Source: Planctomycetes bacterium UBA1146 (GTDB taxonomy: Bacteria > Planctomycetota > UBA8108). Taken from it: a DNA stretch of 64,000 nucleotides. The translations under genes and the position numbers were made by a program. The notes under the pieces are model-generated. The model was given only the letters and a program-made list of their open reading frames with translations, was not told where the DNA came from and made no database searches. Positions 2,732-64,000 of the stretch are shown one piece after another. Every line of letters starts with the position of its first letter. The first letter of the stretch is position 1. The stretch lies in assembly GCA_963579555.1 (NCBI GenBank), contig CAUZHA010000009.1:2432-66431 (forward strand). The letters run 5' to 3'.

Positions 2732-2800
2732 TTCTACCTCTTCTAAAACAGCACCTTCTCACGGGGACCCTGGAAATTCCAGCCAGGCCCTCTCGGTCAC

Positions 2801-8508: not shown

Positions 8509-8512
8509 AAGA

Positions 8513-9694: not shown

Positions 9695-9812
9695 CTAGGA
9701 CATCAGAAACGAGTCTGAGGACTGCGTATGATCTCCTGGGAGATTCTACCGCTTAAGATATGTAAAATCAGGCGAATAAAGACCTTTCACGCCTGTAAGG
9801 CCCTATTTCGGC

Positions 9813-12371: not shown

Positions 12372-12463
12372 GTTATCCAGTCCACTGATTTGAACCTGCC
12401 TGTCTCTTCATCCAGCTGCCGGCAACGCGCTTCAGCTATCTTAGTTTACCGTCCGATCCCCCC

Positions 12464-14998: not shown

Positions 14999-17328
14999 CA
15001 GCCTGCCCTCCTGCCAACAAACTGCGCCAGGGCTGTCTCGAGAAAGAGCAGCGCGATAGCCGCCGCCAGGCAATATTTCCACAGCTCCCGGTCGCGCCGC
15101 AGGGCTTTCTGCTGCTGTCTGGTCTCAACCTCTTCGGAATAGTTCAGCAGCTGGCTGGCCTCGACACCGAAGTGCGACTCCAGTTCCGCGGCCCCGAGCC
15201 CACGCAGGTCGCTCTCGTCAGTCGAGACGTTGACGCTGAAATACTCGATGGTTTTCTTCGCGGCGGGAACTTCGCCTTCCTCCCCGGCGGCCTGCCCCTG
15301 TCCCTGCCTCAGCTCGAGCCTGTACAGCCCGGGAACATCCGTCTGCCCGTAGGCCAGGGAGAACCTCCCTGTGTCGTCAAGCTCGCGCATGGCCATCGGA
15401 ACGGTGCGGCTTCCAGTCAGCCCTCGACCCGGCAGGGGCGGAGCGTAAAGCCTGACCTCGTAGGCGAAGCGCGAGCTGTCGTAGAAGCGCTGGAACTCCT
15501 CCCCGATCCCGAGGTTGTCATTCAGACCGCGGAATCCGATCAGGTAGGCGATCGACTCGTAGAGAAAGACCACGTAGTCCTGCCAGGCCGGAAACTCGTT
15601 CCAGTCATCATCAGCCGAGGAGGTGAACCACAGCACCCGGCCGCGGCCGTAGGAGTTATCAAATACCGCCGGGCTCCTGTCGAGGTCGTTGTAGCGGCAG
15701 AAGACCCTGGCCGTGGACTCCTTGCCTCCGGGCTCCGCTCCCATCTTCATGAATCGGTAGAAGGGGACCAGGGCTCTGTGCAGCTCGGTTCGTTCCTTGT
15801 GCTGCGCGAAATAATCGGCCACCGGATGGGACTTGTCGGAAAATTGAAGGTAGACCGGGCTGAGGCTGTCGCCACGCTCCTCAATAACCTCAAACGGCAG
15901 CAATCGCTCAGGGCCGGGAGCGTGAAAGGTCCTGTTGTAGGTCTGAGGATCGACGTTGGCTCCCATGAAGACCACCAGGAAGCCGCCTTCAGCGACGTAG
16001 CGCCGAAGGGTCACGAGCTCCTTTACGGGAATCTCGGCCACGTTGGCAAGAACAACAAGCGAGAACCTCTTCCACTCCACGTCCCGAAGAAGGTCAGCCG
16101 TCAGGTTGACCGGCTTGAAGGGAGTGATACGGCCGCCGAGAGTGGTCATGGCATCGTCCCGCGGCTGCAGGGCTGTCTGCAGGTAGAAGGTCTCGCGCTC
16201 AAGAGGGTCGACAGCCGGATCTCCATCCACCAGGAGGATCTCGATCTGATCCCGCACATCGACCGTAAAGAACCGCTTATTGTCCACCACGAGGCCATCA
16301 CTGCGCACCTCGGCGACAACCGAGTGATATCCGGGCGAATCGAAGCGGTAGGGAAGGCTGCGGGTCACAACGCCTCCGGCCGGGATTCTCAGGATCTCCC
16401 CCGCCTGGGCTTCCCCTGGATTCCCTGTCACAGGCGGATCTACCCGCACGGTAAAGTCGAGCCCATCGACCTCTCGGCTGCCGTAATTTCTCAGCGTCAC
16501 CTGGATCTCGACAGCCACCCCCTTGGCGAAGAGATCCGGCTTGACCGTGAGATCGGTGATCGCCACATTGGCCCTGTTGCTCTCGGCAGCGGCGAACTGT
16601 GAGAACACGAGCTCGTGGCCTTCGGAGCTGAACTCATCGATGAGCTGCTTGATCTCGGGAGACCGCGGCCCCTCCTTGCCAAGCCAGTCCTTGCGCTGAA
16701 GATCACTGAGAAAGACGATCCGGCACGGCTCGGGCGTCCCTGCGGCTGTCACGAATTGATCTGCCAGGTCGGCTATGGAACGCAACGAGGTCACCAGGCG
16801 AACTCCCCGGTTGCTGCTGGCCAGACGGTCGAGCTCAGACTCGAGCAGCGCTTTCCTCGGGGCGCTCATCTGGCTCCTCTCGAAGATTACGTCCGGTTGG
16901 TAATCCAGCGTCATGACGGCCACGTAGTCGTCCTCCTTTGCGTAGGATGTGACGACATCCAGGACAGTCTGCTTTGCCCTGTCCAGCAGGCTCGATGCAC
17001 CATCCACGTACTCCATGCTATAGGAAGTGTCGATGGCGAAGATCCAGTTCTTGTTCCCCTCGCTGGAGAACGCCTGCGAATTGGAATGCAGAACCGGACG
17101 GGAGACGGCCAGCACGAGCAGAAGAAGGATGAGACAGCGGATCAGAAGGAGGAGGAGATTCTGTATCTGCAGTCTTCGCCTGCTTTTCTTCAGCGCCTTG
17201 AGGAGAAAATCCATCGCAGCCCATTTGCGGCGGCGAAAGCGCTGGCGATTGATCAGGTAGATGAGAATCGGCACACCGACGAGAGCCCCAAGCCAAAGCA
17301 GACCTGAATTGAGGAAGATTCCGCTCAC
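14998..17328 (-). CDS. BatA-like aerotolerance-family protein (N-terminal double-TM BatA_N + VWA domain)
   Basis: 776 aa. N-terminus MSGIFLNSGLLWLGALVGVPILIYLINRQRFRRRKW is the classic BatA N-terminal motif. VWA signature …WIFAIDTSYSMEYVDGASSLLDRAKQ… (DxSxS MIDAS). ATGA overlap with the DUF58 gene at 17325-17328. Confidence 0.7.
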   Translation of the reverse strand: MSGIFLNSGLLWLGALVGVPILIYLINRQRFRRRKWAAMDFLLKALKKSRRRLQIQNLLLLLIRCLILLLLVLAVSRPVLHSNSQAFSSEGNKNWIFAIDTSYSMEYVDGASSLLDRAKQTVLDVVTSYAKEDDYVAVMTLDYQPDVIFERSQMSAPRKALLESELDRLASSNRGVRLVTSLRSIADLADQFVTAAGTPEPCRIVFLSDLQRKDWLGKEGPRSPEIKQLIDEFSSEGHELVFSQFAAAESNRANVAITDLTVKPDLFAKGVAVEIQVTLRNYGSREVDGLDFTVRVDPPVTGNPGEAQAGEILRIPAGGVVTRSLPYRFDSPGYHSVVAEVRSDGLVVDNKRFFTVDVRDQIEILLVDGDPAVDPLERETFYLQTALQPRDDAMTTLGGRITPFKPVNLTADLLRDVEWKRFSLVVLANVAEIPVKELVTLRRYVAEGGFLVVFMGANVDPQTYNRTFHAPGPERLLPFEVIEERGDSLSPVYLQFSDKSHPVADYFAQHKERTELHRALVPFYRFMKMGAEPGGKESTARVFCRYNDLDRSPAVFDNSYGRGRVLWFTSSADDDWNEFPAWQDYVVFLYESIAYLIGFRGLNDNLGIGEEFQRFYDSSRFAYEVRLYAPPLPGRGLTGSRTVPMAMRELDDTGRFSLAYGQTDVPGLYRLELRQGQGQAAGEEGEVPAAKKTIEYFSVNVSTDESDLRGLGAAELESHFGVEASQLLNYSEEVETRQQQKALRRDRELWKYCLAAAIALLFLETALAQFVGRRAG

Positions 17329-18230
17329 CGTCTCAAGCTCCCCGTACGCTTGGCCAGGTAGGTCGAGAGGGCCACGTCGAGATGGTCGCTGGTATCCAGG
17401 GCCACATAATCAAAACGATTGTTCCGACAGACCCTCCTCAGCCTGCTGAGAAATTTCTCCAGCTCCCCGAGGTAGGCTTCCTTCAGGAGCCTTGGATTCG
17501 CCAGCACATCCTCCATGCCCTCCAGCCCCTCAAACATGGTCATGTTCTGAAATGGAAAGGTTCGCTCATCCTTGTCGAGCAGGTGGAAGAGAATCACCTC
17601 GTGATTGCAATAGCGCAGGTGCTTCAGACCTCGCTCAATATGCTCAATATCATCGAGCATGTCTGAGATGATTACGATCAGCCCCTTGCGGCTGATCCTG
17701 TCGGCAAACTGGTGCAGGATAACCCCGAGATCGGTCTTTTCCTTCAGCCCTGGCTTTTCCACCACCTCCAGCAGGGTCTTGAGATGGGATCCGGTGGACC
17801 GCGCGCCTACCTGGTCGCGGACCTTGTCATCAAAGAGAGCCAGCCCAACGGCATCCTGCTGGCGCAGAAGCAGGTAAGCCAGCGAGGCCGCCACCATCAC
17901 TCCGTAATCAAACTTGCTGACTTCACCTGAGGAATAGTTCATCGACTCCGATGCGTCCAGGAGGATATGGGTGTTGAGATTGGTCTCCTCCTCGTACTGC
18001 TTGATATAGAAGCGGTCAGAGCGCCCGAAGACCTTCCAGTCGATGTGGCGAATATCATCCCCGGGGACATATTCCCGGTGCTCGGCGAACTCGATACTGA
18101 AGCCGTGATACGGGCTGCGATGAAGTCCCGAGATGAACCCCTCGACGATAAGCCGGGCCTTGAGCTCCAGCCTGGAGATCCCGTTGAGGACCTTCGGATC
18201 AAGGTACTTGGAAGGCGAATCAGCAGCCAA
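17325..18230 (-). CDS. DUF58 family protein (MoxR-associated, VWA-like)
   Basis: 301 aa with the DUF58 hallmark …EFAEHREYVPGDDIRHIDWKVFGRSDRFYIKQYEEETNLNTHILLDASESMNY…. Confidence 0.8.
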   Translation of the reverse strand: MAADSPSKYLDPKVLNGISRLELKARLIVEGFISGLHRSPYHGFSIEFAEHREYVPGDDIRHIDWKVFGRSDRFYIKQYEEETNLNTHILLDASESMNYSSGEVSKFDYGVMVAASLAYLLLRQQDAVGLALFDDKVRDQVGARSTGSHLKTLLEVVEKPGLKEKTDLGVILHQFADRISRKGLIVIISDMLDDIEHIERGLKHLRYCNHEVILFHLLDKDERTFPFQNMTMFEGLEGMEDVLANPRLLKEAYLGELEKFLSRLRRVCRNNRFDYVALDTSDHLDVALSTYLAKRTGSLRR

Positions 18231-25254: not shown

Positions 25255-28200
25255 TCAGAATCCGAACGGCAGACAGCCAGCCTCGTCCAACCTGAATGGA
25301 AGACTCAGGCTCTGGATGGACTGGGTCTCTCCGGTGCCGTACTTCGACTGGAAGTAGACTCGGAACCGTACGTACCTCGTCCCCTCCAGCTTGCGCGGAT
25401 CCCGCACGAAGCCTGTCAGTTCGCCAGCCTGGCCATGGACATCGAGACTCTCGCCGGCGCTTTCCCAGACGACAATGGCCCGGGTTCCGGGAGGCTGCTG
25501 GAAGGTATTGTAGTCCACTCGGGCTCCATCCAGAAGCAGCGCGTGATTCGAAGCGGCGCGGCCGGGGCCGACACCGATTCGATAGATCTTCGAGACCGCG
25601 ACGGACTCGACGATGTCGGTCAGGAACGGGCCGGTCGTCACACTCGGGTTCACACCTTGCGAGCGAATTCTCGAAGAAGGCGAGTACTCGATACGAATTC
25701 GGCCATTTGAAGAGGGACCTCCCAGGCCGCCAAAAGGCGTACCCGTAAGGGCCGGGGCGGTATTCGTCGACGCGGCTCGAATATTGCCCTCGTAGAGACG
25801 GACACCGCTGGAGAAGAAGGGAGGCAATTGGTTGGCCTGGCCCGCGGTCACGTCAAACTGGACTCCGCTCTCCAGGGTAATCGTATTCTGAACTTGCAGG
25901 AAGATCGTCCCGCCCGCCCCGGCACCGCCATTTCCGGCGAGATCGAGGGACTGATAGGCATCTCCTCCGCGAGACACAAGCCGCGCGCTCGAACGCAGGT
26001 AGAGATCCTGCGCAACGATATGGAGGATTCCTCCACCTCCTCCGCCACCGGTACCCGGAGCGTAGAGGGCCTCTCCCTTATAGGGGTAATTACCGATGAT
26101 GCTTTCGTTGCGGTACGCTCGGCTGATATTGGCGCTGCCGCCGCCGCCGCCGCCGCCCATACCGCCAACAAGGGCGAGCTGGGGAGCCTGTCCAAGCAGC
26201 GTCAGGCGCTGGTTGGGGAAGTTGACTGTGTCGCCACCCTGGCCGGCGAGCTGGCCGGCAAGGCCTCCGTTACCCGGCAGGAGCTTGACATCTCCATCCT
26301 GGCCGGCCTGGCGATTTCCACCGCCGCCGCCGCCGCCGCCGGACTCGAAGCAGTCGAAGCCGCAGGTCCGTCCTGGGAGGCTGCCGCCGCCGGTGGAGCC
26401 ATCAATGTTCGGCAATCCCGGCCTGAAAACCAGGGGAAGACCATTGAGAGTCGTGATCAGGTTCGGAAGGACCGAGGCCTCTCCTCGGGTTACCTGGGTA
26501 TTTCCCGCGCTGCGATTGTTGGGGTTGCCATCTGCATGGGATATCATTCCGCCCGCACCGCCACCGCCCCCGCCGGCTCCGGGTACGCCGCCAAGACCGA
26601 ACAGGGGAGTCTCTCCTCCCCCGATAAAGCGGAGCGCGCCGCCGACGCCGCCGGATGTATCGATCGTCCCGGCGATCTCGGCATAGTCTTTTACCGAGAT
26701 GGTCAACGGGTTGGGACCTGTCGCCCTCAGGACAACATCCTCGTCGATAATGAGCGCCGAGAGATCCAGGAAGCCGGGATTGAGATCCGACTCCCGGGTT
26801 TCCTTGACGATATTTCCAACAGGGGAGCGCAGGATGCTCGTAGTTGTATCGAAAGTCCAGACCGAGATGGGACGACCCGTGATTTCGTCCAGAAGGATCT
26901 CTCCAGTATTCGGATCGAGACTCTGGATAAACCGAAGGTGAACCACTCCATCTCTGCCGCGACCGAAGGAGGGCTCTTCAGAAGCCTCGATAAATCCTCC
27001 GTTCTCGAGCACAGCGGGATCTGTGGCTGGCTCGATGGTGCTTGGATAAACAAATACCATCGTATTCGAGGAGTGAGACGTTCTCGTGCCCTGGACCGCC
27101 CGGGTAAGACCTGTGAAGGTACTTGCCGTCTTTCCGCCGTAGCCAATGACCTCCTCCTCAATCTTGACGAATCCCGCAGACGGGAAAGCCTGGGTAGATT
27201 GCACGCGGATCGACTGGTTACGGTTATTGGAGCCGCTCAGGGTCGAGGTGAGACGCGTCGTGGCCTGCAAGGTCATGCAGAAAGGAGTTCCTCCAGTTCC
27301 GCTCTCGAGACGAATGAACCCGTCGCCTCCAGTTCCTGAGCCGCCCGAGCGGTTTTGCCCGTTGGAGGGGCCTCCGCTGCCGGCCGCGCCGCCCCTTACC
27401 TGAAGGCTGTCACAGCTGGTGACATCGACGGAGCCCGTGGCTCGCAGATGAATCGAACCACCGCTGCCGCCTCCTCCTGCCCCACCATTCGTGGTGCCCG
27501 CGGGCGCCTCTCCAGGGGGGACTCTGCCGGAACCGCCGGCGCCGCCATTGGCCAGGATGGATCCGATGACGACAACGCTGCCGCGGGCGGTAAGCCGCAT
27601 GGCTCCACCTCCGCCGCCACCGCCGCCGCCGCCGGTCGAGGCGAACTCAGCACCCATGGAAACGCGGGAAAGACTGGCGCCACCGCCGCCGCCGCCGGAG
27701 CCGGCGGTGAGGGGAATCTGCAGAGCGTTGCCTCGAGCAACTCCTCCCTTGCCTACACGCGGCTGGATAAAACCTGAAATGTTCGTTGTTCCGTAATCAC
27801 CGTCGCCACCGCGAACGCGATGCCCGCCGCCGCCTCCAGGCGCGCCGGCAAAGGTTGAGTTGCGGGCCGTGTCCGGGTTGACCGCAGCCGGGGTCGTTCC
27901 GCCGCCGCCGCCGTTAACGCCGTCCGTGGCAGGCTCGAGAAGCTGAACGGCCGCTGAGGTCGCTCCAGTGAGCTGCATGAGAGCTCCATCTCCGCCCTCA
28001 CCGCCGCCAGCAATTCCCTCGCCTCCGGAACCGCCGACAAGTGAACCATCCGCTCCGGCGCCTCCGTTGAGATCAAGAAGACCGAGGATGGTAAAGACCG
28101 GGTCGGTATCGGAAACGCTGTTGTCGCCGCCAGAGCAGCGAATCACCAGGGGCTCGACCCCCTGCACAAAGACCGTGGTCTGTGGGGAGATGGTGAAATT

Positions 28201-29943
28201 GGCGAAGTGGAATTCGCCGAATTCTTCTCCAGGATTACCCACCCTGTTTCCATCTGGAGTGCCATCATCAGTCAGAATGAAGGTACTTGACTCCTCGACT
28301 ATGACCGCGGGCTCGCCCTCGAGAGCGACGTTCCTGAGAAGAATATGGGTGACATTGAGACGATCGGTATCGATCAGATAGTACTGGCCGGTGATCGTAT
28401 CAGGATCGAGGAAATTTTCCGTCGGCAGTACCTCCAGGTCGACCTGGGCAAGGCCCTGGCCAAACTGGTAGTCATCATCTGTCGAGGTCCGGCCCTCGAG
28501 AAGCCCGGGGTTGTAGGGAGCGCCCCAGCTGGCATCGGTCTCGTTCCTGTCAAGGTTGGTATCGTTATCGAACGACTCCGTGATCTCAGCGGATCTCCAG
28601 TCGGAAACCGGATCTTCCGGGCGATCTTCGAGCCAGTAATAGATAAACGAGGGCGCCATGAAGGTATGCGAATTGAAATCACGGTCACCCGCATCGGGAA
28701 CGGGACGAACCCGGAAATGAACCGTCCAGTGTCTCGGGGGAGAGATGCCGGCCTCGACAGTCTCATTCAAGTCCCTGAAAAGAGGATCGCATTGGGCGTC
28801 CCATACGAAGGTCCGATGGAGGCCGCTGGAAGGCAGCATGCGCTTACCGAGGTACTTATGCTGAATCGTTCCGCAGGTAATCTCAAACTTGCCGTCGTTC
28901 GCAGGATCTTCGTCGCGCGGCTTCGCCGGCTGCCACTCAAGCTCCCCGAGGGGATTGTCAACAGCCCATTCAAACTCCATGGTATAGGATGCATCGACCA
29001 CCAGTTCGTAGCAGGTGTAGTCAATTCGGACGGATCCGGTCGCGATCCCGGTGGGGCCTCGCATTCCGTTGACAACCGCACCGATGACCTCGATGAGGTT
29101 CTCATTGGCGACCGGGATCTCTACCCTGTTCGAAGAGCCAGAACTGCTCCTGGCGACAATGCCGAGATTCTCCCGCGGCAAAGCGAAAGGGAAAGAGAAG
29201 TTGTTATTGCCCGTGGCCCCATGATTGAGAACGAATGAAAAGGATTCATAGCCGGAAGGAACGCCGCCGGGAACAAAGGCCCCGGTGGCCTGGTTACGAA
29301 TAAAGGTGCTCGCAGGCACGCGGGCGGTGTTGCCGCCGCCATCATCCAGATCAAGATAGGCTACGTCGGTGAGATTGATACCGTAAATGTTGACCCGGCT
29401 GTTCTCCTGGAAGCGTGAGAGCAACGGTATGTAGACAACATATTCATCCTCTTCATTCGCTCCGAGCGTAACGGCGTAGATAGAGGGACACGCGTCAAAA
29501 CCGACGGCCCCGGCCGACACGCCATGGCAGAGCATCTCGATATTACCAGAGGTCACGCCAGTGGGGACAATGACCTCGAGATAGGACTCAACGGTGGCGC
29601 TGTTTGCATCCACGCGAAGATTGACCACGTCAAGCGGCATGCCTTCGATCGCTCCGTTGCCTCCGGAGAAGAGAACCTGGTGGCTCTCGATCTCATCGGC
29701 GAAATTGAATCCGTTGAGACGGATAATGGTTCCCGGGCAGAGGGGATCCTCATCGTTGCCCACCCCTACGCGCTCGTAATTGAGCAAAACGCAGGCGGTA
29801 AGGTCACCGATCACGGGATCCGGTTCTTCCCAAGGGAAGCCCCCTCCTCCACTATTCGACTGGTCCCAGGAGAGATCGCACCCCCCGACGAAGAGAGAAG
29901 CCCCCAATAGGGCGATGATAATGAAGAGGCTATTCCGGTTCAT
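25255..29943 (-). CDS. Giant (1562 aa) glycine-rich secreted lipoprotein with IPT/TIG-like N-terminal region and long poly-Gly/GGxGG repeat zones
   Basis: N-terminus MNRNSLFIIIALLGASLFVGGCDLSW (lipobox-like VGGC). Dozens of G-runs (GGGGGGGGG, GGSGGEG…). Its 24-nt gap to ftsY is convergent. Function unknown. Confidence 0.6.
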   Translation of the reverse strand: MNRNSLFIIIALLGASLFVGGCDLSWDQSNSGGGGFPWEEPDPVIGDLTACVLLNYERVGVGNDEDPLCPGTIIRLNGFNFADEIESHQVLFSGGNGAIEGMPLDVVNLRVDANSATVESYLEVIVPTGVTSGNIEMLCHGVSAGAVGFDACPSIYAVTLGANEEDEYVVYIPLLSRFQENSRVNIYGINLTDVAYLDLDDGGGNTARVPASTFIRNQATGAFVPGGVPSGYESFSFVLNHGATGNNNFSFPFALPRENLGIVARSSSGSSNRVEIPVANENLIEVIGAVVNGMRGPTGIATGSVRIDYTCYELVVDASYTMEFEWAVDNPLGELEWQPAKPRDEDPANDGKFEITCGTIQHKYLGKRMLPSSGLHRTFVWDAQCDPLFRDLNETVEAGISPPRHWTVHFRVRPVPDAGDRDFNSHTFMAPSFIYYWLEDRPEDPVSDWRSAEITESFDNDTNLDRNETDASWGAPYNPGLLEGRTSTDDDYQFGQGLAQVDLEVLPTENFLDPDTITGQYYLIDTDRLNVTHILLRNVALEGEPAVIVEESSTFILTDDGTPDGNRVGNPGEEFGEFHFANFTISPQTTVFVQGVEPLVIRCSGGDNSVSDTDPVFTILGLLDLNGGAGADGSLVGGSGGEGIAGGGEGGDGALMQLTGATSAAVQLLEPATDGVNGGGGGTTPAAVNPDTARNSTFAGAPGGGGGHRVRGGDGDYGTTNISGFIQPRVGKGGVARGNALQIPLTAGSGGGGGGASLSRVSMGAEFASTGGGGGGGGGGAMRLTARGSVVVIGSILANGGAGGSGRVPPGEAPAGTTNGGAGGGGSGGSIHLRATGSVDVTSCDSLQVRGGAAGSGGPSNGQNRSGGSGTGGDGFIRLESGTGGTPFCMTLQATTRLTSTLSGSNNRNQSIRVQSTQAFPSAGFVKIEEEVIGYGGKTASTFTGLTRAVQGTRTSHSSNTMVFVYPSTIEPATDPAVLENGGFIEASEEPSFGRGRDGVVHLRFIQSLDPNTGEILLDEITGRPISVWTFDTTTSILRSPVGNIVKETRESDLNPGFLDLSALIIDEDVVLRATGPNPLTISVKDYAEIAGTIDTSGGVGGALRFIGGGETPLFGLGGVPGAGGGGGGAGGMISHADGNPNNRSAGNTQVTRGEASVLPNLITTLNGLPLVFRPGLPNIDGSTGGGSLPGRTCGFDCFESGGGGGGGGNRQAGQDGDVKLLPGNGGLAGQLAGQGGDTVNFPNQRLTLLGQAPQLALVGGMGGGGGGGSANISRAYRNESIIGNYPYKGEALYAPGTGGGGGGGILHIVAQDLYLRSSARLVSRGGDAYQSLDLAGNGGAGAGGTIFLQVQNTITLESGVQFDVTAGQANQLPPFFSSGVRLYEGNIRAASTNTAPALTGTPFGGLGGPSSNGRIRIEYSPSSRIRSQGVNPSVTTGPFLTDIVESVAVSKIYRIGVGPGRAASNHALLLDGARVDYNTFQQPPGTRAIVVWESAGESLDVHGQAGELTGFVRDPRKLEGTRYVRFRVYFQSKYGTGETQSIQSLSLPFRLDEAGCLPFGF

Positions 29944-50177: not shown

Positions 50178-53100
50178 TCACTCGCAGATATCGTCAGCGG
50201 TTGGATCAGAGCCGATCCCGGGAAACGGCGCCGGCGGCATCTGGGTTACATCGGCGGGGTCCTGGAGGAATTGAAGCAACCTCATCAGATCGCCGAAATT
50301 GAGACGGCCATCATCATTGATATCAGCAGCGTCATGGTTGTCCGGCCAGACACCCGCTCCACCAAAGAGGAGACTCGAAAGCAGGGTCACGTCAGAGTCC
50401 GTAACCTGCCGGTCCCCATCGACATCTCCTCGAATAAACGGCGGGGGATCCAGGTAAAGAAGGAAGCCTTCACTCTGGGCCAGGGTCAGTGGATCCCGAA
50501 CCCGCAGCGAAGCCTGCCCTGCACTTTCGCGGCTCGGAGCAAAAAAGCTCAGATGCTGTCCTGAGTGGAATACGAACCCTGCGGAATCAACAACGATTCC
50601 ATCGACCAGGACCTCGCAACGATCTGTGAAGCCATCTCCGAAGAGATCTACATGGCTACCGCCACAGATCGAGACCGCGTTGGGCTGGACCAAGTTGACC
50701 TCGATCTGGTTGGGCTCCGGCTGCATATCCGGACACTCTCCCTCGATGATATCCAGGGGAGTTGGCAGCGACAGGACCTCGATGGGCACGCCGGCAAGAT
50801 CAAAAGGATCCAGGACCTCGACCACCACGAAGGCCTCGTCGAGGACAGGCAGCCCTTCGACGGGAGCTCGAACGAGCATCGTGCGGCCGTCGTTTGAAAC
50901 AGCCGATCGTCCTGAACGTTCAAAAGGCAACGCGACCATCGGCTCGAGGCCATCGACCTGCAGCTTCACCACGGTGCTGCGGGAGAACCCGGCGCCTCTC
51001 ACCTCGATGAAATCACCACAGCCTGCCCGCAGGCTGCTCACGTCAACGCCTTCAAGGCTGGGCGACTCGAAGGAATAGACCTCGGGAAGGAGTGCATCCT
51101 GCCCTCCGGTCGAGAGCAGGATGTCGTAGAGTACGCTGCTTGAAGCCGGAAGCGCGGCGGGCCTCGGTCCGAGAGCATCCGGTACGACAAAGGATATGGC
51201 GCCGGAGTCCATAACGGTAATATTCGCAGCGGGAACCTCGATGCTCTCAGAGCCTCCTTCTACAGGAACAAGCCTGATTTCCGGGGTGAGCCCGGCGCCG
51301 CCATCGAGGCCTTCGCCTGAAAGCCGGACCTCGTTTCCACCTGTGAGTGGCCCCGTAACCGGCGTAGCCGAGGCGAGCCCGAGCGCGGGAAAGTTGCCGC
51401 CAAGGGTCACACTCGTATCCAGGAATGCGTCGATCACCGGTCGGCCGGGAATAGCCTGCTCCGGGAAGAAGGAGGTGGGCTGATCGGCGGAGGGATCAAA
51501 CAGGAAGGTGATCTGCGAGATGGTCCGCGGATCGTCCGGGGCCAGCTTCGAGGCGAAGGTGAAGTTCAGGACGGTTCCATCCTCAAACGGAGCGATAAAG
51601 TCAGACCCGAGAGTGGAAAAGTTGAAGCTGATCCAGCCGACCCTCAGGTCTCCGCTCGAGTTGATGTCAGGAAGCGTATCCTCTACAGGCAGGAAGATCT
51701 CCCCGAGGTCAGCAGCGACCGTGCCCTCCTGCTCCTGGTCAACGGGCAGGAGCTCGAGGTGCTCGGGGTTGAACTGCAGGTGAACGGTGTAGGCATTGAA
51801 GCGATAGTTCGGTATCTCAGACGGAGCGCGGAGGCTTCCTTTCACGGCAACATGGAAAATCGCGGAATCCTCCGCATCGGGAACCAGGTCAAGCTTGAGG
51901 TAGCTATTCGCGTATTGAATAGCTCCCTCTGCCATGTCGAGAGAACGCCAACTGTCAAAGCCGGAGAAACGAATGCGTATGTTCTCGAGTCGAATGAGAT
52001 TACCCTGGGGAAGCACCGCAGGAAGCTCGGCCTGGAGCTTCGCCAGGACAACCTCGGAGGAGCCTCCGATAGACTCGAGGACCAGGTCGCCCTCGCTCAC
52101 CGTGATCCGCTTGAGGCCATCACCTTCGGGAACCGAAGCGAGCGCCGGGCTCAGCAGCGAGATGGCCTCTGGGATCACGAGCTCGAATTCAACCGCCTCG
52201 ATAGCTGAGGAGAGCCCGGAAGTCACGATCGGAATTTCAAAGGAGGGCTCTCCTACCGCGGCAACGACCGCTCCAAGAGAGATGGAGGGTGAATAGATAA
52301 CGCCACCGACACAGCTGGCCTCGTCTCCGCCAGCGCTCAGGGTTACCTCGTAGGAGCCAACCGGCTCAATAGAGTCAAAGAAATAGCCGGTATCGCTGGG
52401 TAGGATATCGAAGACGGTCCTCGAGTCGACCGTCGCGCCCGCGATGACATGGCTCAGCTCGAGCTGAAGCAGGCTGTCTCCATAGCCGCGCCAGGGGGAG
52501 TCCCAGTTGACTGCGATCCCGCCGGAATCCTTGACGCACAAGATGGCGACCTCGTCCAGGTCAGGAGCATTCAGCGTGAAGGGCTGGAAGGTGACCGAAT
52601 CGCTGTCGATCGGGGTCCCTGCCGGGAACCCATCACAGGCGCCATCAGCGTTCTTTGTCGCCGTCAAGGTGAGCGTATAGGTTCCCGGAGCCGCCCCGCC
52701 CCGGCCCAGCTCACCTTCGTAGATGAAGGAGTCCTGGTTGGCCTCCTGCCCCTGCAACTCCATACCCGTCTCACCGAAGAGATTGACCGGAGCGCTGCCT
52801 GGAGCCGCCGGCTCAAAAAGAAGCTCGAGCCTCATGAGATCGTAGGCCTCTCCGTTGATCCAGTCCCAGCGGATCCTCAGTGGAGCCGAGGAGCTCGAGC
52901 GTGACAGGAGCGTCCCCACCACCGGCGAACGAATAGGAACCTCGGTATCACAGGGCTCCGGATCGAGTCCACTGCAGGCTCCCCTGGAGCTCTCGATGCC
53001 GCCGATGACCGCGCTGACCTCGTAGAGATCACTGCCATCGTCGGCTGAGGGGCTGTCCTCAAAGATAAAACCTCCCACCGGCAGAACGCTCGACCTGAAG

Positions 53101-56747: not shown

Positions 56748-58223
56748 TCAGTTAGCGGGGAAGCATACATGTGACCCAGGCTCGCAATCATCAATTCCGA
56801 GGCCTTCTACGGTCCCGCAATCGGGATAGGGACCATCGGGCGGAGCGTAGAGCGCGAAGTTCGTGGAACCTGGCTGCAACCTGTAGTTGATGATGTACAG
56901 CGCATCGGAGATGGATAGAGCCCCATCATTGTTGGCATCCGCAGCCGGAAGACAGGCAGTCATCTGACCGTTATAGAACAACATCTGAACGATCCAGATT
57001 CCATCGGCGATATCCACATGGGAGTCGTTGTTGGCATCTCCACGAATGAATGTCGGGTCGAGAGCGATTGGAGTGCCCTCGAGGACCACGGTCTTTGTTT
57101 CTTCAATGAACTCCGGAACAACCCCGTTACCGTTAACGACGAACAGGATCTCCAGCGGCCTGTCTTCGCCAAGGGTGGTATCCACAAAGCTGAGCTCCAC
57201 ATCTCTCGAATCGTCTCCAACAAGAGAGACAAGTGATCTCAACGTAATGAAGTCGAGAGGAGCGGCGGACAGGGGCTCGAGGCTGAGAACCTCTGTACCC
57301 GGAGAGCCCAGCTGCACGACAGCCCCGACGCTGATGCCGGTGATCATCCCATCGAGATCCCGATCATCGAGCTTGTAGTTCAGGAACTCAGGCCCCTCGC
57401 CGCCATTCAGGGCGGCGACAGCCGGTCCGGGATTGACCGCGATGCACTCGACAAGCTCGTGATCGACCCGCACGGAATAGGACCAGCCCTGCAGGTCGAC
57501 GGGGTTTTCCTTGCCCAGGTTAGAGACCTCGACCTGGACATCGATCGTGTCCTCTCGATTAGCCGGCAACACACATGGCTCCTCGGAACCAAAGGCGAGG
57601 GCCAGGGAGGCGGTGTCCTCAACGGGTGGAATGGCGCAGGCAACGTTGACGCCGGCGCCCGTTACCTGGTCGGGAAGAATCGCCTGCCCATCAATGGTCA
57701 GGTTGATCTCAATCGGAACACGTCCGGGCTGCGAAAGATCGGAGACAAAGTTGATCTCCGTTGCCAGCCCTTCAACGCCTTCGGCGCATCCGAGCACGGT
57801 GTAGTTGGCAAAGCAGAAGCTGAAGAAATCCGACACCGGAACCTCGGCCGGCTCGATAAAGGAGAGCACGACACCCTGGATAATGCCGGTTCGAGTTCCA
57901 TCCTCTAATTCGATAATCTCGGTGAGAGTAAAGCTGGGAGCGACGAGCGCCGCCTCAGCATCAGACCCCTTCATGGTGACGCTCTCGGCCTGCAGGACCG
58001 CCGGATCGTGGCGAACACCAAAGGACCAGCCCTGCGTTCCACCTGCCCGCGAGACGACTCCGGGCGTGGCCATGACCGTATCGCCCGGCCCGTAGACTCC
58101 CCCTTCCCCCCGATCGAGTCGGATCTCGAGGTCAAAATCCCCGGCCTGCCCGAAAAGAACGGGAGACAGGACCATGACGGTCAGAACGACCCAGGACCGC
58201 CATAATGTATTCAAGGCCTGCAT
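56748..58223 (-). CDS. Secreted protein, paralogue P1: two diverged copies of the GWS…VVLSF module + dockerin-like/Cys-rich C-terminal domain
   Basis: Start ATG 58223 (GGAGA 7 nt upstream; the ORF is open to 58376). Signal peptide MQALNTLWRSWVVLTVMVLSPVLFGQAG. Modules …GTQGWSFGVRHDP…GVVLSFIEP… and …DLQGWSYSVRVDH…. C-terminus RGDANNDSHVDIADGIWIVQMLFYNG…DANNDGALSISDALYIINYRL…YPDCG…C…C. Confidence 0.6.
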   Translation of the reverse strand: MQALNTLWRSWVVLTVMVLSPVLFGQAGDFDLEIRLDRGEGGVYGPGDTVMATPGVVSRAGGTQGWSFGVRHDPAVLQAESVTMKGSDAEAALVAPSFTLTEIIELEDGTRTGIIQGVVLSFIEPAEVPVSDFFSFCFANYTVLGCAEGVEGLATEINFVSDLSQPGRVPIEINLTIDGQAILPDQVTGAGVNVACAIPPVEDTASLALAFGSEEPCVLPANREDTIDVQVEVSNLGKENPVDLQGWSYSVRVDHELVECIAVNPGPAVAALNGGEGPEFLNYKLDDRDLDGMITGISVGAVVQLGSPGTEVLSLEPLSAAPLDFITLRSLVSLVGDDSRDVELSFVDTTLGEDRPLEILFVVNGNGVVPEFIEETKTVVLEGTPIALDPTFIRGDANNDSHVDIADGIWIVQMLFYNGQMTACLPAADANNDGALSISDALYIINYRLQPGSTNFALYAPPDGPYPDCGTVEGLGIDDCEPGSHVCFPAN

Positions 58224-58876
58224 TTCACTCTCCTTGCGCATTGAAAATGCGACAATAAAAACAATGCAATAGAAGCCTCCATTCGGGGCAGGCTTTACCG
58301 CTAATGAACTTGGTTTTCCAGCAATGGCGCCGCTGTTCTCAACATTCCGCCAATCCGTACCAGGCGGAGGCTTCACCTGAAATCAGGCGCCAATTCTCTT
58401 CAATTATTCAGCCAGTTGCCGGTCAACCGGACTGGCTTTCCTCCGCTCCGCTGCCCTTAGCCCAGCTGTTTTTCACCAGCAAAAGCAATACTCAACAAAG
58501 GCAGAACTGACGGAAGGCGGTTCATTCAGACACAAAAAAATGAGACCAGTAACGATTATATGCCTCACCTAGAAGGCTGTCAACGCAGGTAAATAAAGGA
58601 GCCGATCGCGAGATAGAAAAATGGCTTCAAACTGTTGATTTCAGACCAAAACAGCAAGATTAGGGTTTTGTAAGATACGTGTGCCTCCAGGAGGCCGCAT
58701 TCGGCATAGAGGAGATTCGTTCAAATACTTGCTAATACCCCCCCCTAAACCGCGCATTGAACGCTGCAGAAGGCCTCTGGGGAGCTCTGGAGGGCTATAG
58801 ATCACCCCCAGCACTAGGAACAACTGCTTTTGCAGCACCCCGAAATACCGACCCAAAGCCAGGGGAATCATTAGAA

Positions 58877-58914
58877 AAATCCCCGTGACCGGAGCGACCC
58901 TGTCACGGGGATTT
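58877..58914 (-). terminator. Rho-independent terminator downstream of P2
   Basis: Perfect 13-bp inverted repeat AAATCCCCGTGAC / GTCACGGGGATTT with a 12-nt loop. The U-tract is on the minus-strand transcript (…GGGGAUUUUUCU). It lies 29 nt after the P2 stop. Confidence 0.55.
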
Positions 58915-58942
58915 CTTACTCTTCATTTAGCAGCGAAATGGA

Positions 58943-60454
58943 TCAGGAACAGCCCTGCGTATCGCTGTCACAGCCGAGACCATCATCATCCAGAATCGAG
59001 CCGCCATCCCTGCCGCAGATGGGGAAGGGAGCCGAAGGCGCATCACCGGCACGGAACTGGTGATTGATCATCAACATGACGTCGGTAACGTCGACATTGG
59101 AGTCGTCGTTCGCATCCGCCGCATCTTCACAAGAGGGCTCAGGGCCATTTCGAAAGAGATAGTTGACTACGTTGATAGGATCAGCAATGTCCATCTTGCC
59201 ATCGCTGTTGACGTCGCCGCGAAGGAAAGAGTTCCTGAGATCTTCGATCTCAGTGAACGAAACATTCAGGACCTGGCGGGCACAGAAATCGGCGGAGCTG
59301 CCTCCAACAGTGGCGACGTTGGCCACCGGCTGGCCGGCTCCAACCATCCCGTCGTCCCAGGAAATACTGCCTGTAATCGAATCAGCTCCCTGCTCCGAAG
59401 CTGACTCGAGCGAGAGCGCGAGCACGGTCGCCGTACCGACAACATCCAGAGTGATCGGCATGGTAAAGGAGAGCACCACGGCGCTTACCGCGCCCTGCTG
59501 GCCGCCGTTGTTGTCCGGATTGACCACCTCGGTCTTCTCAAAGCCGGTGTTGCGCAGTCCGCCCTGGCTGACATCCGCAGAGGATGTGCCGTCGGTCGTG
59601 GCGCCGACGAGGTTCATGCCGCCGTTGACGGCAGCTGAAAGCGACCAGCCCTGCACCCCGTCGCCACCCGCATTGTTACTGACAATCGCGGCGAAAACGT
59701 CGACCGCTCCAATCCCTCCGGTAGGCACATCAACCGAGAGGGAAGCATCATCATCCACCGACTCTGCCAACATACCGGCGTTCAACTCAGCGGCCGGGCC
59801 GAGGCTCTCGGCCTGGAAGATCAGGTTAGGACTCGCGCCCTCACAGGTAACCACGGCAATGCAGTTGATGGTTGCCGAAGAGAAGGACGGATCGACCGTC
59901 TGGCCATTCCAGGTGACCGTGTTCTCAACCGGCTGCCCGGCACCTTTACACCCATCGGCATAAGACACGGTGCCCGCGCCACCCTCATCGGGGATCGTCG
60001 CATCGACCGCGACCTTGGCGATCTCGTTGACGGAATCGCCGGGCAAGGTGATGGGCTGCACAAAAGACAGCACCACGGCGCTCACCGCGCCTTCAAGGCC
60101 ATCGCAGAGAGATCCCGCGCCGGCCTCGGTGGTCGTTTCGCTCTTCTCAAAACCGGTATTGCGAAGGCCGCCCTGTGAAACATCGGCCGCAGCCGTTCCC
60201 TCTGTCGTAATTCCAGTGATCGCGGCACAACCTTCAGCCGCCAGGCTGATCGACCAGCCCTGGGCCCCTCCATCCGCATCCCCTCCCTGCGACATGGTGC
60301 AGGTCAGCTCGAGGGACTGAACCGAACCCGGATTGCCGGCAACATCTCCGCCGCCACCGATTGCAAGATCGAAAGTCGGCTGCGCAGAGGCGGTGCCGAT
60401 TCCAAGTACAAGTAATCCTGTGAGGATTACGCCACGGAAAACCAGACTTCTCAT
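58943..60454 (-). CDS. Secreted protein, paralogue P2: two GWS…GGLRNTGFEK…VVLSF…GAGQPV modules + dockerin-like/Cys-rich C-terminal domain
   Basis: RBS GGGAGGG then ATG. Signal MRSLVFRGVILTGLLVLGIGTASA. Modules at ~res 60-190 and ~270-430. C-terminus RGDVNSDGKMDIADPINVVNYLFRNG…DANDDSNVDVTDVMLMINHQF…PSAPFPICG…C…C. Confidence 0.65.
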   Translation of the reverse strand: MRSLVFRGVILTGLLVLGIGTASAQPTFDLAIGGGGDVAGNPGSVQSLELTCTMSQGGDADGGAQGWSISLAAEGCAAITGITTEGTAAADVSQGGLRNTGFEKSETTTEAGAGSLCDGLEGAVSAVVLSFVQPITLPGDSVNEIAKVAVDATIPDEGGAGTVSYADGCKGAGQPVENTVTWNGQTVDPSFSSATINCIAVVTCEGASPNLIFQAESLGPAAELNAGMLAESVDDDASLSVDVPTGGIGAVDVFAAIVSNNAGGDGVQGWSLSAAVNGGMNLVGATTDGTSSADVSQGGLRNTGFEKTEVVNPDNNGGQQGAVSAVVLSFTMPITLDVVGTATVLALSLESASEQGADSITGSISWDDGMVGAGQPVANVATVGGSSADFCARQVLNVSFTEIEDLRNSFLRGDVNSDGKMDIADPINVVNYLFRNGPEPSCEDAADANDDSNVDVTDVMLMINHQFRAGDAPSAPFPICGRDGGSILDDDGLGCDSDTQGCS

Positions 60455-60797
60455 TTTTCCCTCCCGGAACTAAACACGACCCCCTCGTTCTCCGGAATCG
60501 ACATCATGCCAACCGGAATGTTGAATTTCCGGACGCAGGTATCTGGAATCCCAGGAGTCGGAGCAACGTCGTCGTCTCACGACACGGATCACAATTTCTA
60601 TTTAAAACCAGCCATCCTCTTTCATGACCCTGAAGAGAACGCACTGGTCCGATAACACTATGCGGGGGCAATTCTATCCCTTGATTACACCCTGAGATAC
60701 TAGCATTTAATAAAAGAAACGAGTTTTGGAGAAAAGCCCCTTAAGCTGCCGCTGAGGGCTCTCAAGTGAAATACTTAACTCTCTACTAACATCAAAA

Positions 60798-60888
60798 AAG
60801 AGACGGACCAGGAAGCTTTCAGCTCACCACGCCCGTCTCTTCAGATTCAGTATATTCCGGGCTTGAAACCTGACGGCCATTCAAGCCC
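60798..60888 (-). terminator. Candidate tandem hairpins downstream of P3 (weak terminator call)
   Basis: GGGCTTGAA-12 nt-TTCAAGCCC (60859-60888) is immediately after the P3 stop. Then AAGAGACGG-26 nt-CCGTCTCTT (60798-60841) is followed on the minus transcript by UUUUUUGAUG. Confidence 0.3.
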
Positions 60889-60906
60889 GGCTCAGATTTC
60901 ACTCAC

Positions 60907-61839
60907 CTAATTACAAATCGACGACTCGCAATCAACATCACCGGCCTCTCCACAGGAGGGATACGGAGCGCTTGGCGCCGGGCCTCCGGAGAATCTGAAG
61001 GCGATATTGTAGAGCGCGTCGGAAACGTCATTCAGTCCGTCTCCATTACAATCGACGCTGGCAAGGCACGTTGCCGCCGCCCCGCCGCGGAAGAGACTGT
61101 TAACAATGAAAATCGCGTCAGCGATATCGGACTGGCCATCATCATTCGGATCACAGCGCAGGAAGGACGGGTAGACCATCTTCTCAAAAACGAGCAGGGC
61201 GGCCTGGCACGTACAGAAATCGGCCGTGGCGCCGCTGACGGTGGCTACATTCGCGACCGGTTGGCCAGCGCCAACGAGACCGTCCTGCCACTCAACCCGT
61301 ACCTCCTGGGTCGTGTCGGACAGGGGTTCCGAGGTGGCGATCTCGATATTCAGGATGCCAGCGGTTCCAGAACCGCTCAAGGTAACCGGCATGGTGAAGG
61401 AGAGCACCACGGCGCTTACCGCGCCTAAAGCTCCTTCGTTGCGATCAGGATCCACGACCTCGGTCTTTTCAAAACCGACGCTGCGCAGTCCACCCTGGCT
61501 GACATCAGCGCCAGCTGTTCCATCTAGGTTCGCACCGGTGGGGATCCCTCCGGTAACCAGGGCGGAAAGTGACCAGCCCTGGACACCGCCGGCATCGATG
61601 CCATTGGAAACAATCGCCGCATGCACAGTAGCAGTCCCTATCTCACCCTCAGCGGCATAGACGGTTGAGGAACGAGGCGCGTCAATACCATCAAGCGCAC
61701 TGATATCAGCGGATTCGACAATGGCCTCGTCGACAATCGCGATGCTCAGCGACGCATTCGCACAATCCCCGGCATTGACCGCACCTGCCAGGCAGAATGC
61801 CGTCAAAAAGCCAAAACAGATTCCGAGAAGATATTTCAT
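60907..61839 (-). CDS. Secreted protein, paralogue P3: one GWS…GGLRSVGFEK…VVLSF…GAGQPV module + dockerin-like/Cys-rich C-terminal domain
   Basis: Start ATG 61839 preceded by GGAGGAG-aatgat (the ORF is open to 61869). Signal MKYLLGICFGFLTAFCLAGAVNA. C-terminus RCDPNDDGQSDIADAIFIVNSLFRGG…DCNGDGLNDVSDALYNIAFRF…PSAPYPSCGEAGDVDCESSICN. Confidence 0.65.
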   Translation of the reverse strand: MKYLLGICFGFLTAFCLAGAVNAGDCANASLSIAIVDEAIVESADISALDGIDAPRSSTVYAAEGEIGTATVHAAIVSNGIDAGGVQGWSLSALVTGGIPTGANLDGTAGADVSQGGLRSVGFEKTEVVDPDRNEGALGAVSAVVLSFTMPVTLSGSGTAGILNIEIATSEPLSDTTQEVRVEWQDGLVGAGQPVANVATVSGATADFCTCQAALLVFEKMVYPSFLRCDPNDDGQSDIADAIFIVNSLFRGGAAATCLASVDCNGDGLNDVSDALYNIAFRFSGGPAPSAPYPSCGEAGDVDCESSICN

Positions 61840-61890
61840 ATCATTCTCCTCCATGTTGTCAGTAATCAAAAAGTCCCTGCGGCGACCGCC

Positions 61891-61908
61891 GATCTATCAA
61901 GATAGATC
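61891..61908. promoter_or_regulatory. 18-bp perfect palindrome GATCTATC-AA-GATAGATC upstream of P3 (candidate operator)
   Basis: Seen directly at 61891-61908, 52-70 nt upstream of the P3 start codon. Confidence 0.4.
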
Positions 61909-61909
61909 T

Positions 61910-61921
61910 CCCCCCCCGGGG
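61910..61921. repeat. C8G4 homopolymeric tract adjacent to the palindrome in the P3 promoter region
   Basis: Seen directly: tctccccccccggggccgc. Confidence 0.6.
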
Positions 61922-62374
61922 CCGCATTGACCTTATCGTTAATTGAAGTGAACCACCAGGTGAGCCCATATAGCCTCAACCGGTGAATCAATAGTTACAG
62001 TCACATTCACGGCAATAGGAAACCAGGACTTCCTGGAAGCATAAAGCCATCTCTTACTCTCCGCCTGCAAGACGGAGACCGAGCACCCCGGGCCCGCGCA
62101 GAGCAAAGGGTCTCACTATAAAACTGGCTCACCTGGCACGGCGAGGGAGTTCCAAACAGCTCCTCGCTCGATACGACTCCGCGAACCGAAGCACGACTAA
62201 ATGGCTCGAGTCCAAACTCTCTCGAAGCCTGAGAACTCAGATCAGAGAAAAGGCACCATGGGCAAACCAGCCCACCCTTTCAAAAACCTGAGTCATCGAG
62301 TGTACCGCCTGATGCCTCCGATGGAAGTCCTATATTTTTTTCTTAAAAGACCCTTTCTGCCCCCGGCTCGAGGC

Positions 62375-62411
62375 AAAAAAAAAAATGGGCGGCATCTCGA
62401 AGATGCCGCCC
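62375..62411 (-). terminator. Strong rho-independent terminator downstream of P4
   Basis: GGGCGGCATC-tcgaa-GATGCCGCCC (10-bp GC-rich stem, 62387-62411) is followed on the minus transcript by U11 (plus-strand A11 at 62375-62385). It lies 25 nt after the P4 stop. Confidence 0.7.
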
Positions 62412-62435
62412 AAGCAACCCTAACTTAACCCGATC

Positions 62436-63983
62436 TTATGGACAGGAAGAACTCTCGCAAGCCAATCCGTCCGGCGTAGCATCTTCGCCACAGGAGGGGA
62501 ATGGAGCCGCCGGTACGGGACCAGCCATGAACCTGTACGCGATCGTAAACAACGCATCCGAAATATCGGTTTTGCCGTCGTCATTTGAATCCGCTGAAGC
62601 GAGACAGGGCGGGGTCGGACCATTGCGAATGAGCCAGTTGATCGTGTAGATCGGATCGGCAATATCGACCTTGTCATCATTGTTCGCATCGGCGCGCACA
62701 AACACGGCGCTGGGGGGCGAACAGGCATCTTCGCTGTGGACAACCGTGATCCCGCTAATCTGGCGGGGAGCCACCGTCTGGCCCTGGACCGTCAGTACGG
62801 TATCAACCGGCTGTCCTGCGCCGATCAGTCCATCGGTAAAGTTGATCTCCGAGGAGAAGCCCTCTCCCCCGGCGCCTTCGGCTACAACGTAGCGCGCCCG
62901 GAGTATGGACTGATCCTGGGTGGCATCGAGAACGATCGGCATGGTAAAGGAGAGCACCACGGCTGAAACAAGCCCGGCCCGACCATCATTCCTTGCGGGA
63001 TCGATAATCTCGGTCTTCTCAAATCCGGTACTCCTTATTCCGCCGTCGTTCACATCACCGGCGACCGTTCCCGAGGTTGTCGGGTAGGTGTCATTGGTGA
63101 TCGTAAGCTCTGCGGGGTTGTGCTCGATTCCGAGTGACCAACCCTGGGCGCCCGCGTTCGGGGGGTCGTTGGGATCATTCGGCCCGATATAGGCAGTCAC
63201 CAACGCCTCTCCACCTCCCTCTGAGGAACAGAGAACGATCTGGGAGGCATCCGGATTGTCCGAAGTTCCAAGCTTGAGGTCCGTACCGCCGGCACAAGCC
63301 GCCGCATCAGCGCAATCGGAGTCGTCACAATCAACAGACCCATCTCCATCGTTGTCCTCACCATCTTCACAGTCAGTCTCCGGCGGCGGAGGCGGCTCAA
63401 TGTTGACAGTAAGGGCAGCCAGGGTCGGAGTAGCCGTCTGGCCCTCAAAGGTGACATCGTTGTTCACCGGCTGTCCGGAACCGACCAGGCCATTGCGATA
63501 CTCGATAGTTCCAGTAGAGGCCTCGGCTCCCACCGTTGCTTCGTAATCGACGAAGCCGACGATCTGATCGGTATTCGGAGGCAGGGTGATCGGCATGACA
63601 AAAGAAAGCACCAGGGCCTGAACGAGACCCTGCTGGCCGTCATTGCGGTCAGGATCTACAATCTCAAAGACCTCAAAGCCGGTACTTCGAAGGCCTCCAT
63701 CCGCAACATCCGCCGCTGCGGATCCCGCGGTGGTCACCGCTGAAATATTAACTCCATCATTGGCGACACCCATGGACCAGCCCTGGGGACCAGTGGCACC
63801 GTCAAGGTCACTGGAACCGAGGATCAACTTTACCTGGAAAGGTACCGTTGATCCCGCTTCCGCCTGGATGCTTGCGGGAGCATCCTCAAAGCTATAGCTA
63901 AAGCTACCCTGGGCCTCTAAGACCGCTGTCCAACAGAGACAGAGGAATCCAGCGACCAGGGTGGTTGAGATCCTACCCATCAT
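62436..63983 (-). CDS. Secreted protein, paralogue P4: two GWS…GGLRSTGFE…VLSF…GAGQPV modules separated by an Asp/Cys-rich linker + dockerin-like/Cys-rich C-terminal domain
   Basis: RBS AGGAGA then ATGATG. Signal MMGRISTTLVAGFLCLCWTAVLEAQG. Acidic linker PPPPPETDCEDGEDNDGDGSVDCDDSDCADAAACAGG. C-terminus RADANNDDKVDIADPIYTINWLIRNG…DSNDDGKTDISDALFTIAYRF…PAAPFPSCGEDATPDGLACESSSCP. Confidence 0.65.
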   Translation of the reverse strand: MMGRISTTLVAGFLCLCWTAVLEAQGSFSYSFEDAPASIQAEAGSTVPFQVKLILGSSDLDGATGPQGWSMGVANDGVNISAVTTAGSAAADVADGGLRSTGFEVFEIVDPDRNDGQQGLVQALVLSFVMPITLPPNTDQIVGFVDYEATVGAEASTGTIEYRNGLVGSGQPVNNDVTFEGQTATPTLAALTVNIEPPPPPETDCEDGEDNDGDGSVDCDDSDCADAAACAGGTDLKLGTSDNPDASQIVLCSSEGGGEALVTAYIGPNDPNDPPNAGAQGWSLGIEHNPAELTITNDTYPTTSGTVAGDVNDGGIRSTGFEKTEIIDPARNDGRAGLVSAVVLSFTMPIVLDATQDQSILRARYVVAEGAGGEGFSSEINFTDGLIGAGQPVDTVLTVQGQTVAPRQISGITVVHSEDACSPPSAVFVRADANNDDKVDIADPIYTINWLIRNGPTPPCLASADSNDDGKTDISDALFTIAYRFMAGPVPAAPFPSCGEDATPDGLACESSSCP

Positions 63984-64000
63984 GTTCTCCTATTCACTTT

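Follow-up and report, generated by a model that had tools for sequence, protein, structure and literature searches.

Four adjacent minus-strand genes, P1 to P4, lie in the 64,000-nucleotide window analysed here, the whole stretch of DNA from Planctomycetes bacterium UBA1146, and encode apparently secreted, scaffoldin-like proteins in which one or two modules with a predicted cohesin fold are followed by a dockerin. On balance, these modules probably represent a sequence-divergent cohesin family belonging to a non-cellulosomal cohesin–dockerin assembly system, in which they would bind dockerins. Functional cohesins are favoured because of the predicted fold and copy numbers resembling those of scaffoldins, because the modules are obligatorily fused to a dockerin, and because neighbouring genes carry a dockerin only.

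The first-pass annotation had described four adjacent genes of 320–542 amino acids (aa) on the minus strand, and the open reading frames (ORFs) lie exactly where it placed them, with lengths of 542, 503, 320 and 515 aa for P1 to P4. A motif scan finds the sequence motifs it listed in the proteins to which it ascribed them, but the repeated module measures ~175–185 aa instead of the ~150 aa proposed. P2 and P4 each contain two instances of GWS, GG[LI]R, [VL]VLSF and G[AS]GQPV, and P3 contains a single instance of each; in P1 the scan detects only GWS (twice) and VVLSF (once). The five modules of P2, P3 and P4 are mutually alike, with BLASTP E values of 1e-23 to 2e-54 and 42–55% identity. A hidden Markov model (HMM) constructed from these five, without P1, picks up both P1a and P1b among the 230 ORFs of the window and gives no further match there; therefore, P1 carries two diverged copies. 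The motif scan and the HMM thereby agree with the proposed copy numbers, two in P2 and in P4, one in P3 and two diverged ones in P1. At the DNA level the repeats are 60–93% identical and restricted to coding motifs, and the paralogues are therefore old.

The annotation could place the module in no recognised family; likewise, sequence searches of Pfam, NCBIfam and the PDB all fail to recognise it. No Pfam or NCBIfam model matches the module significantly in the window proteins, nor does one in 98 family members, and no unrelated Pfam family claims it. DUF7055 (PF23157, 66 positions) was considered as the family of the module and rejected: 8 of the 98 members match it at 13–14 bits, below its gathering score of 27.6, and the matches span just 18–40 residues, all at its GxGQPV end (for example, residues 367–384 of P0048 and 164–202 of P0060). 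DUF7055 may cover part of a related domain.

The AlphaFold2 model of P3 residues 33–320 (32 sequences, pLDDT 87.5) has a beta-rich domain and, C-terminal to it, the dockerin helices, and a Foldseek search of the PDB with this model places the cohesins 4ums, 3ul4, 5lxv and 2vn6 on top, with E values of ~1e-5 and a probability of 1.0. An independent AlphaFold model of the isolated P4 module a (90 sequences) reaches a pLDDT of 97.7 and a pTM of 0.91, and 18 of its 19 Foldseek matches at E <= 1e-3 are cohesins. These belong to types I and III or come from Clostridium perfringens; they include type I cohesins (CipC, OlpA, ScaB and CaCohA2), R. flavefaciens ScaC and ScaE-type cohesins, and 2VO8 and 2JH2, the C. 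perfringens cohesins of non-cellulosomal origin, with TM-scores of 0.45–0.58 when normalised by query and 0.41–0.70 by target. The predicted fold corresponds to the nine-stranded flattened beta-sandwich (jelly-roll) by which cohesins are recognised. Passing an AlphaFold module model through Foldseek was the check proposed by the first-pass annotation; run for P3 and for P4 module a, it returns cohesins for almost all of the best matches, and the suggested cohesin-like beta-sandwich is thus borne out at the level of predicted fold.

The C-terminal tail of P1 to P4, described earlier as dockerin-like, is by its profile matches a true dockerin. Against Pfam Dockerin_1 (PF00404, gathering cut-off 22.9 bits), the tails of P2 and P1 reach the cut-off and those of P4 and P3 miss it, and Dockerin_1 is matched in 82 of the 98 family members. 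Furthermore, a profile of the 98 members reaches solved cellulosomal dockerins in the PDB, including CelS 1daq (2e-6), 4fl4_A, 2y3n_B and 3ul4_B, in the range of 2e-6 to 1e-3. In the alignment of the tails of P0 to P4 (P0 being the adjoining downstream gene), D or N occupies positions 1, 3, 5, 9 and 12 of both calcium-binding (Ca) loops in P2 to P4, and Ser is found at position 9 of the second loop in P1. In the P3 model the dockerin helices lie at 217–228 and 250–261; the alignment and the model together give the two Ca-binding loops, each with its helix, of a type I dockerin. Four Cys residues are conserved in this dockerin subtype, one past helix 1 and three in a tail of the form P[FY]PxCG...C...C. 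They probably form two disulfides, and the pattern fits an oxidising, extracytoplasmic location.

The module belongs to a large family. A word-indexed search returned 42 relatives, none with a functional name and, where named, all "hypothetical" or "uncharacterized". A HMMER scan of 1.84 billion cluster representatives, from clusters defined at 50% identity, gave 1,263 matches at E <= 1e-3, 712 at E <= 1e-10 and 191 at E <= 1e-30. Among 193 proteins, 128 have two modules and 44 have one, with 12 carrying three, 7 carrying four, and single proteins carrying seven and eight. The commonest layout is a signal peptide, module a, module b and the dockerin; all 11 multi-module members inspected have an N-terminus resembling a signal peptide and, at the C-terminus, the same dockerin. 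The architecture is that of an adaptor scaffoldin, in which a secreted polypeptide contains cohesin modules in tandem and a single dockerin; here the modules are cohesin by predicted fold. In 82 two-module proteins, the nearest neighbour of 152 of the 164 modules is the module in the corresponding position of another protein, and by sequence comparison the a and b modules are ancient position-specific subtypes. The nearest relatives of the first P1 module are N-terminal a modules elsewhere, and the P3 module is of the b type only. A few members contain additions (PKD, thrombospondin type 3 repeats, malectin and weak metallopeptidase matches); P0185, P0171 and P0105, for example, have metallopeptidase-like, PKD or thrombospondin-type-3 regions.

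The signal peptides of P1 to P4 were judged by eye from the N-terminal sequence. P2 begins with MRSLVFRGVILTGLLVLGIGTASA/QP and P4 with ...LCLCWTAVLEA/QG, and the corresponding signal-peptide-like stretches are MKYLLGICFGFLTAFCLAGAVNA/GD in P3 and MQALNTLWRSWVVLTVMVLSPVLFG/QA in P1. The ORF starts of P1 and P3 as called are probably too far upstream and are revised downstream because homologues such as P0001 begin there; the true start of P1 is probably Met46 or Met52, near 58241/58223, and that of P3 is probably Met11 at 61839. If these probable starts are taken, all four N-termini read as Sec signal peptides, as the first-pass annotation had expected. From these N-termini and the conserved Cys pairs, P1 to P4 appear to be secreted proteins.

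Two flanking genes carry related dockerins. The large adjoining gene P0, downstream of P1 to P4, encodes a dockerin of a subtype without most of the conserved cysteines. The real start of P0 may be the internal Met50, past which the sequence reads ...LLVLPALAALPAC with a lipobox-like LPAC, a possible lipoprotein-type signal. On the other side, upstream of P4 and just past the window end (position 64000), related loci contain a gene for a 656-aa protein (3507–5477 in locus L003 and 3505–5475 in L001). The L003 copy, the sole copy scanned, has the family dockerin subtype (HMM E 2e-20) and no recognisable module; in locus L004 this position is occupied instead by a partial extra module and a dockerin. 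Since P0 and the 656-aa gene carry related dockerins, the cluster contains six or more dockerin genes in a row, and four of these also encode cohesin-fold modules. Neither the family dockerin nor the module was found in the window ORFs besides P0 to P4.

Under the favoured reading, P1 to P4 would be secreted, scaffoldin-like proteins that combine cohesin-fold modules with a Ca-binding dockerin stiffened by conserved Cys residues. The modules would bind dockerins, either those of the paralogues or those of the flanking P0, a candidate partner, and the 656-aa protein. From the cluster products, a multi-protein complex or network could then form outside the cytoplasm, either extracellularly or at the cell surface. 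We infer both the binding itself and which dockerin would pair with which module. Such an assembly would be a non-cellulosomal counterpart of adaptor scaffoldins, akin to the "planctosome", that is, the cohesin/dockerin systems without cellulases proposed for freshwater Planctomycetes of the Nemodlikiaceae (Andrei et al. 2019, ISME J, PMC6461901).

Several results weigh against functional cohesins. The best match of Pfam Cohesin (PF00963, gathering score 24.1 bits) in the window is P1b at 12.7 bits and E 0.15, below the gathering score, and among the 98 members there is one match (E 0.0078), not repeated in relatives. The P1b match was also considered as a sequence bridge to cohesins and dropped, being absent in six P1-type relatives and two P1 orthologues. 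A PDB hmmsearch with the family profiles yields zero cohesins at E <= 10. An hhalign comparison of 145 diverse modules with a small type I cohesin alignment gives a probability of 0.2%, a weak test, the alignment consisting of four PDB sequences and CipA relatives with an Neff of 2.4 (the database search with CipA cohesin 2 gave just 9 close relatives, and three further PDB cohesins were added). In addition, the module is 30–40 residues longer than canonical cohesins, and the near-invariant GGLRxTGFEKTE and GxGQPV have no counterpart in the aligned type I cohesins. TM-scores of 0.5–0.7 indicate a common fold, not necessarily a common function, and, given the near-invariant motifs and the missing sequence similarity, the module may instead be a ligand-binding domain with only the fold in common. 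In that case, the modules would be beta-sandwiches of the type of carbohydrate-binding modules (CBMs) or serve substrate capture, and P1 to P4 would be cargo docked on a scaffold of ordinary cohesins elsewhere in the genome. Binding modules are common in dockerin-bearing proteins of cellulosomal systems, and the two very conserved motifs, which in the model lie partly outside the long strands, might mark a fixed ligand site. However, the best structural matches are specifically cohesins, with zero CBMs among the 50 best; up to eight tandem copies with one dockerin is the layout of a scaffoldin and not of cargo; and neither the window nor the related loci retrieved show a scaffold with Pfam cohesins. 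We regard this alternative as unlikely, yet as one that deserves real weight.

It is quite improbable that the modules are passive structural spacers resembling the immunoglobulin-like stalks of fibrillar adhesins or pilins. Adhesin stalks typically consist of tandem beta-sandwich repeats, and integrin calf and thigh domains, Gram-positive pilins and the CLIPPER adhesin domain do appear as weaker matches further down the Foldseek list, but they rank under the cohesins, with lower TM-scores. Near-invariant motifs of 6–12 residues and two ancient subtypes across more than 1,000 clusters are rare in stalk domains, and the two modules of most members are too few for a stalk. The genes are overlapped by many long spurious ORFs on the opposite strand, which could suggest that the ORFs and repeats are artefacts, either chance ORFs in GC-rich DNA or low-complexity similarity. 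The chance of this is negligible: the same proteins occur in conserved order in at least 8 independent contigs of metagenome-assembled genomes (MAGs), the 712 cluster representatives stand at E <= 1e-10, and the AlphaFold models are highly confident, so that family scan, related loci and model together refute it. A bolder form of the cohesin reading, which we consider rather doubtful, would have both module subtypes bind the cysteine-clasped dockerin of their own family and so form a self-assembling extracellular lattice or coat in pelagic Planctomycetota. The two-module proteins would then act as branching units and the one-module P3 as a chain extender, with the dockerin-only neighbours, the lipoprotein-like P0 and the 656-aa protein, serving as ends or membrane anchors.

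Table 1. Features of the P0–P4 cluster in the window (strand as marked; residues are those of the encoded ORF).
Feature	Coordinates	Strand	Residues	Description
P0	50178..56399	-		2073 aa; FG-GAP_3, Big_5, TIG; related C-terminal dockerin; adjoins P1–P4, downstream
P0 dockerin	50265-50429	-	1991-2045	Family dockerin HMM 3e-12
P1	56748..58376	-		ORF, 542 aa; putative signal peptide, two diverged modules of predicted cohesin fold, then dockerin
P1 dockerin	56883..57041	-	446-498	Dockerin_1 E 1e-4, 22.9 bits; two Ca-loop repeats
P1 module b	57078..57626	-	251-433	HMM 3e-4
P1 module a	57636..58166	-	71-247	HMM 1.5e-12
Sigma-70 consensus TTGACA-17-TATAAT, perfect	58555..58583	-		Upstream of P1; consensus match only
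P2	58943..60454	-		ORF, 503 aa; putative signal peptide, module a, module b, dockerin
P2 dockerin	59060..59218	-	413-465	Dockerin_1 E 1.3e-7, 32.1 bits
P2 module b	59249..59812	-	215-402	
P2 module a	59852..60385	-	24-201	
P3	60907..61869	-		ORF, 320 aa; putative signal peptide, single b-type module, dockerin
P3 dockerin	61012..61152	-	240-286	Dockerin_1 E 0.29, 11.8 bits; family HMM 5e-36
P3 module, b-type	61180..61728	-	48-230	Best Foldseek matches cohesins
Intrinsic-terminator-like hairpin	62386..62412	-		12 pairs then T10; directly after P4
P4	62436..63983	-		ORF, 515 aa; putative signal peptide, module a, acidic Cys-rich linker, module b, dockerin
P4 dockerin	62538..62693	-	431-482	Dockerin_1 E 9e-4, 19.8 bits; family HMM 2.8e-39
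P4 module b	62730..63302	-	228-418	
P4 linker	63294..63386	-	200-230	Acidic double-disulfide repeat; NCBIfam NF033662
P4 module a	63390..63914	-	24-198	AlphaFold model; Foldseek matches cohesins

The linker between the two P4 modules, ETDCEDGEDNDGDGSVDCDDSDCADAAAC, matches NF033662 with E 8.8e-8 and 31.8 bits, under the model cut-off of 41. Linkers resembling this acidic Cys-rich stretch are observed in the relatives P0019 and P0020. The spacers between the P1 to P4 genes are unusually long (450–570 bp). A search of these spacers for shared regulatory DNA found direct repeats only inside coding motifs. The perfect sigma-70 consensus sits ~300 nt 5' of the probable P1 start, and terminator-like hairpins weaker than the one after P4 are present in the P2–P1 and P1–P0 spacers.

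The ten genome matches obtained with the P3 protein as query all come from Planctomycetota MAGs or from uncultured marine bins, among them UBA1662, UBA8108, station ALOHA, a TARA bin and a 3000-m sample. The gene order P4-P3-P2-P1 is conserved in loci L001 to L008 with P3 identity down to ~72%, so the four paralogues persist as separate genes. A distant ENA metagenome contig contains at least 8 consecutive family genes with modules and dockerin (2717–17935), some so diverged that the module HMM gives E values of 1e-5 to 8e-3; the family seems to form arrays of tandem paralogues repeatedly. With YidC, MnmE, NrdD, SMC and BatA encoded in the vicinity, the window itself has a chromosomal appearance. 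The planctosome proposal combines anchor and adaptor proteins that carry cohesins and dockerins with dockerin-bearing peptidases, all encoded by a single planctomycete genome. Glycoside hydrolases are absent from the gene cluster, and no peptidase was found in the cluster or the scanned window neighbours; the weak metallopeptidase matches noted above belong to the distant P0185. Elsewhere in the window, three minus-strand ORFs of 1073, 929 and 1562 aa (2801–6022, 6019–8808 and 25255–29943) give no Pfam match at E <= 0.01.

The pairing of cohesin and dockerin is the standard example of modular extracellular assembly, and nearly all work on it concerns anaerobic cellulose degraders. As modelled, the modules would constitute a cryptic cohesin-fold family, one that fails the Pfam Cohesin sequence tests while agreeing with cohesins in predicted fold and architecture; the underlying principle is already known, and text searches of the literature found no description of the module. 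A family of at least 1,263 clusters is unseen by the domain libraries, and surveys based on Pfam Cohesin would therefore miss a whole cohesin-fold branch in ocean Planctomycetota. Counts of cohesin–dockerin systems in marine bacteria would change, and a partner for planctomycete dockerins becomes testable. If the modules bind dockerins, the attachment of many "orphan" dockerins of Planctomycetes would be explained, the planctosome idea would gain testable components, and new orthogonal cohesin–dockerin pairs would be available for protein engineering. Should the lattice form of the reading be true, the cohesin–dockerin principle would be used to build a cell-surface polymer and not to organise enzymes.

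Compared with known cohesins (PF00963; CipA Coh2 1OHZ, CipC Coh1 1G1K/2VN5, ScaC 5LXV, and C. perfringens 2VO8 and 2JH2), the modules share the predicted beta-sandwich and are likewise arranged in tandem, within secreted proteins that contain a dockerin as well. There are, however, differences: the module has no significant sequence similarity to cohesins by HMMER and a limited hhalign comparison, is ~180 aa in length versus ~140 aa, and possesses its own near-invariant motifs (QGWS, GGLRxTGFEKTE, AVSAVVLSF and GxGQPV). Unlike the hosts of known cohesin systems, those of the family are marine Planctomycetota, and the cluster lacks a glycoside hydrolase.

Adaptor scaffoldins combine cohesins and a dockerin in one polypeptide, as in ScaA of Acetivibrio cellulolyticus and Ruminococcus flavefaciens and in CipA with its type II dockerin. 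The present family resembles them in having a signal peptide, n cohesin-fold modules (n = 1–8) and one C-terminal dockerin, but has no CBM, X module or SLH anchor, and most often contains two modules, of fixed a and b subtype. The dockerin contains the duplicated Ca-binding loop and helix of the type I dockerin (PF00404), and its profile reaches solved dockerins at 2e-6; it departs from that type in the Cys past helix 1, the tail P[FY]PxCG...C...C and the weak scores with Pfam's model of cellulosomal dockerins. Similar to the planctosome (PMC6461901), the family would represent a cohesin/dockerin system of Planctomycetes unlinked to cellulose, with metallopeptidase-like, PKD or thrombospondin-type-3 regions in some members. 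Unlike the planctosome, the family described here is invisible to Pfam Cohesin, marine, and organised in tandem paralogue arrays.

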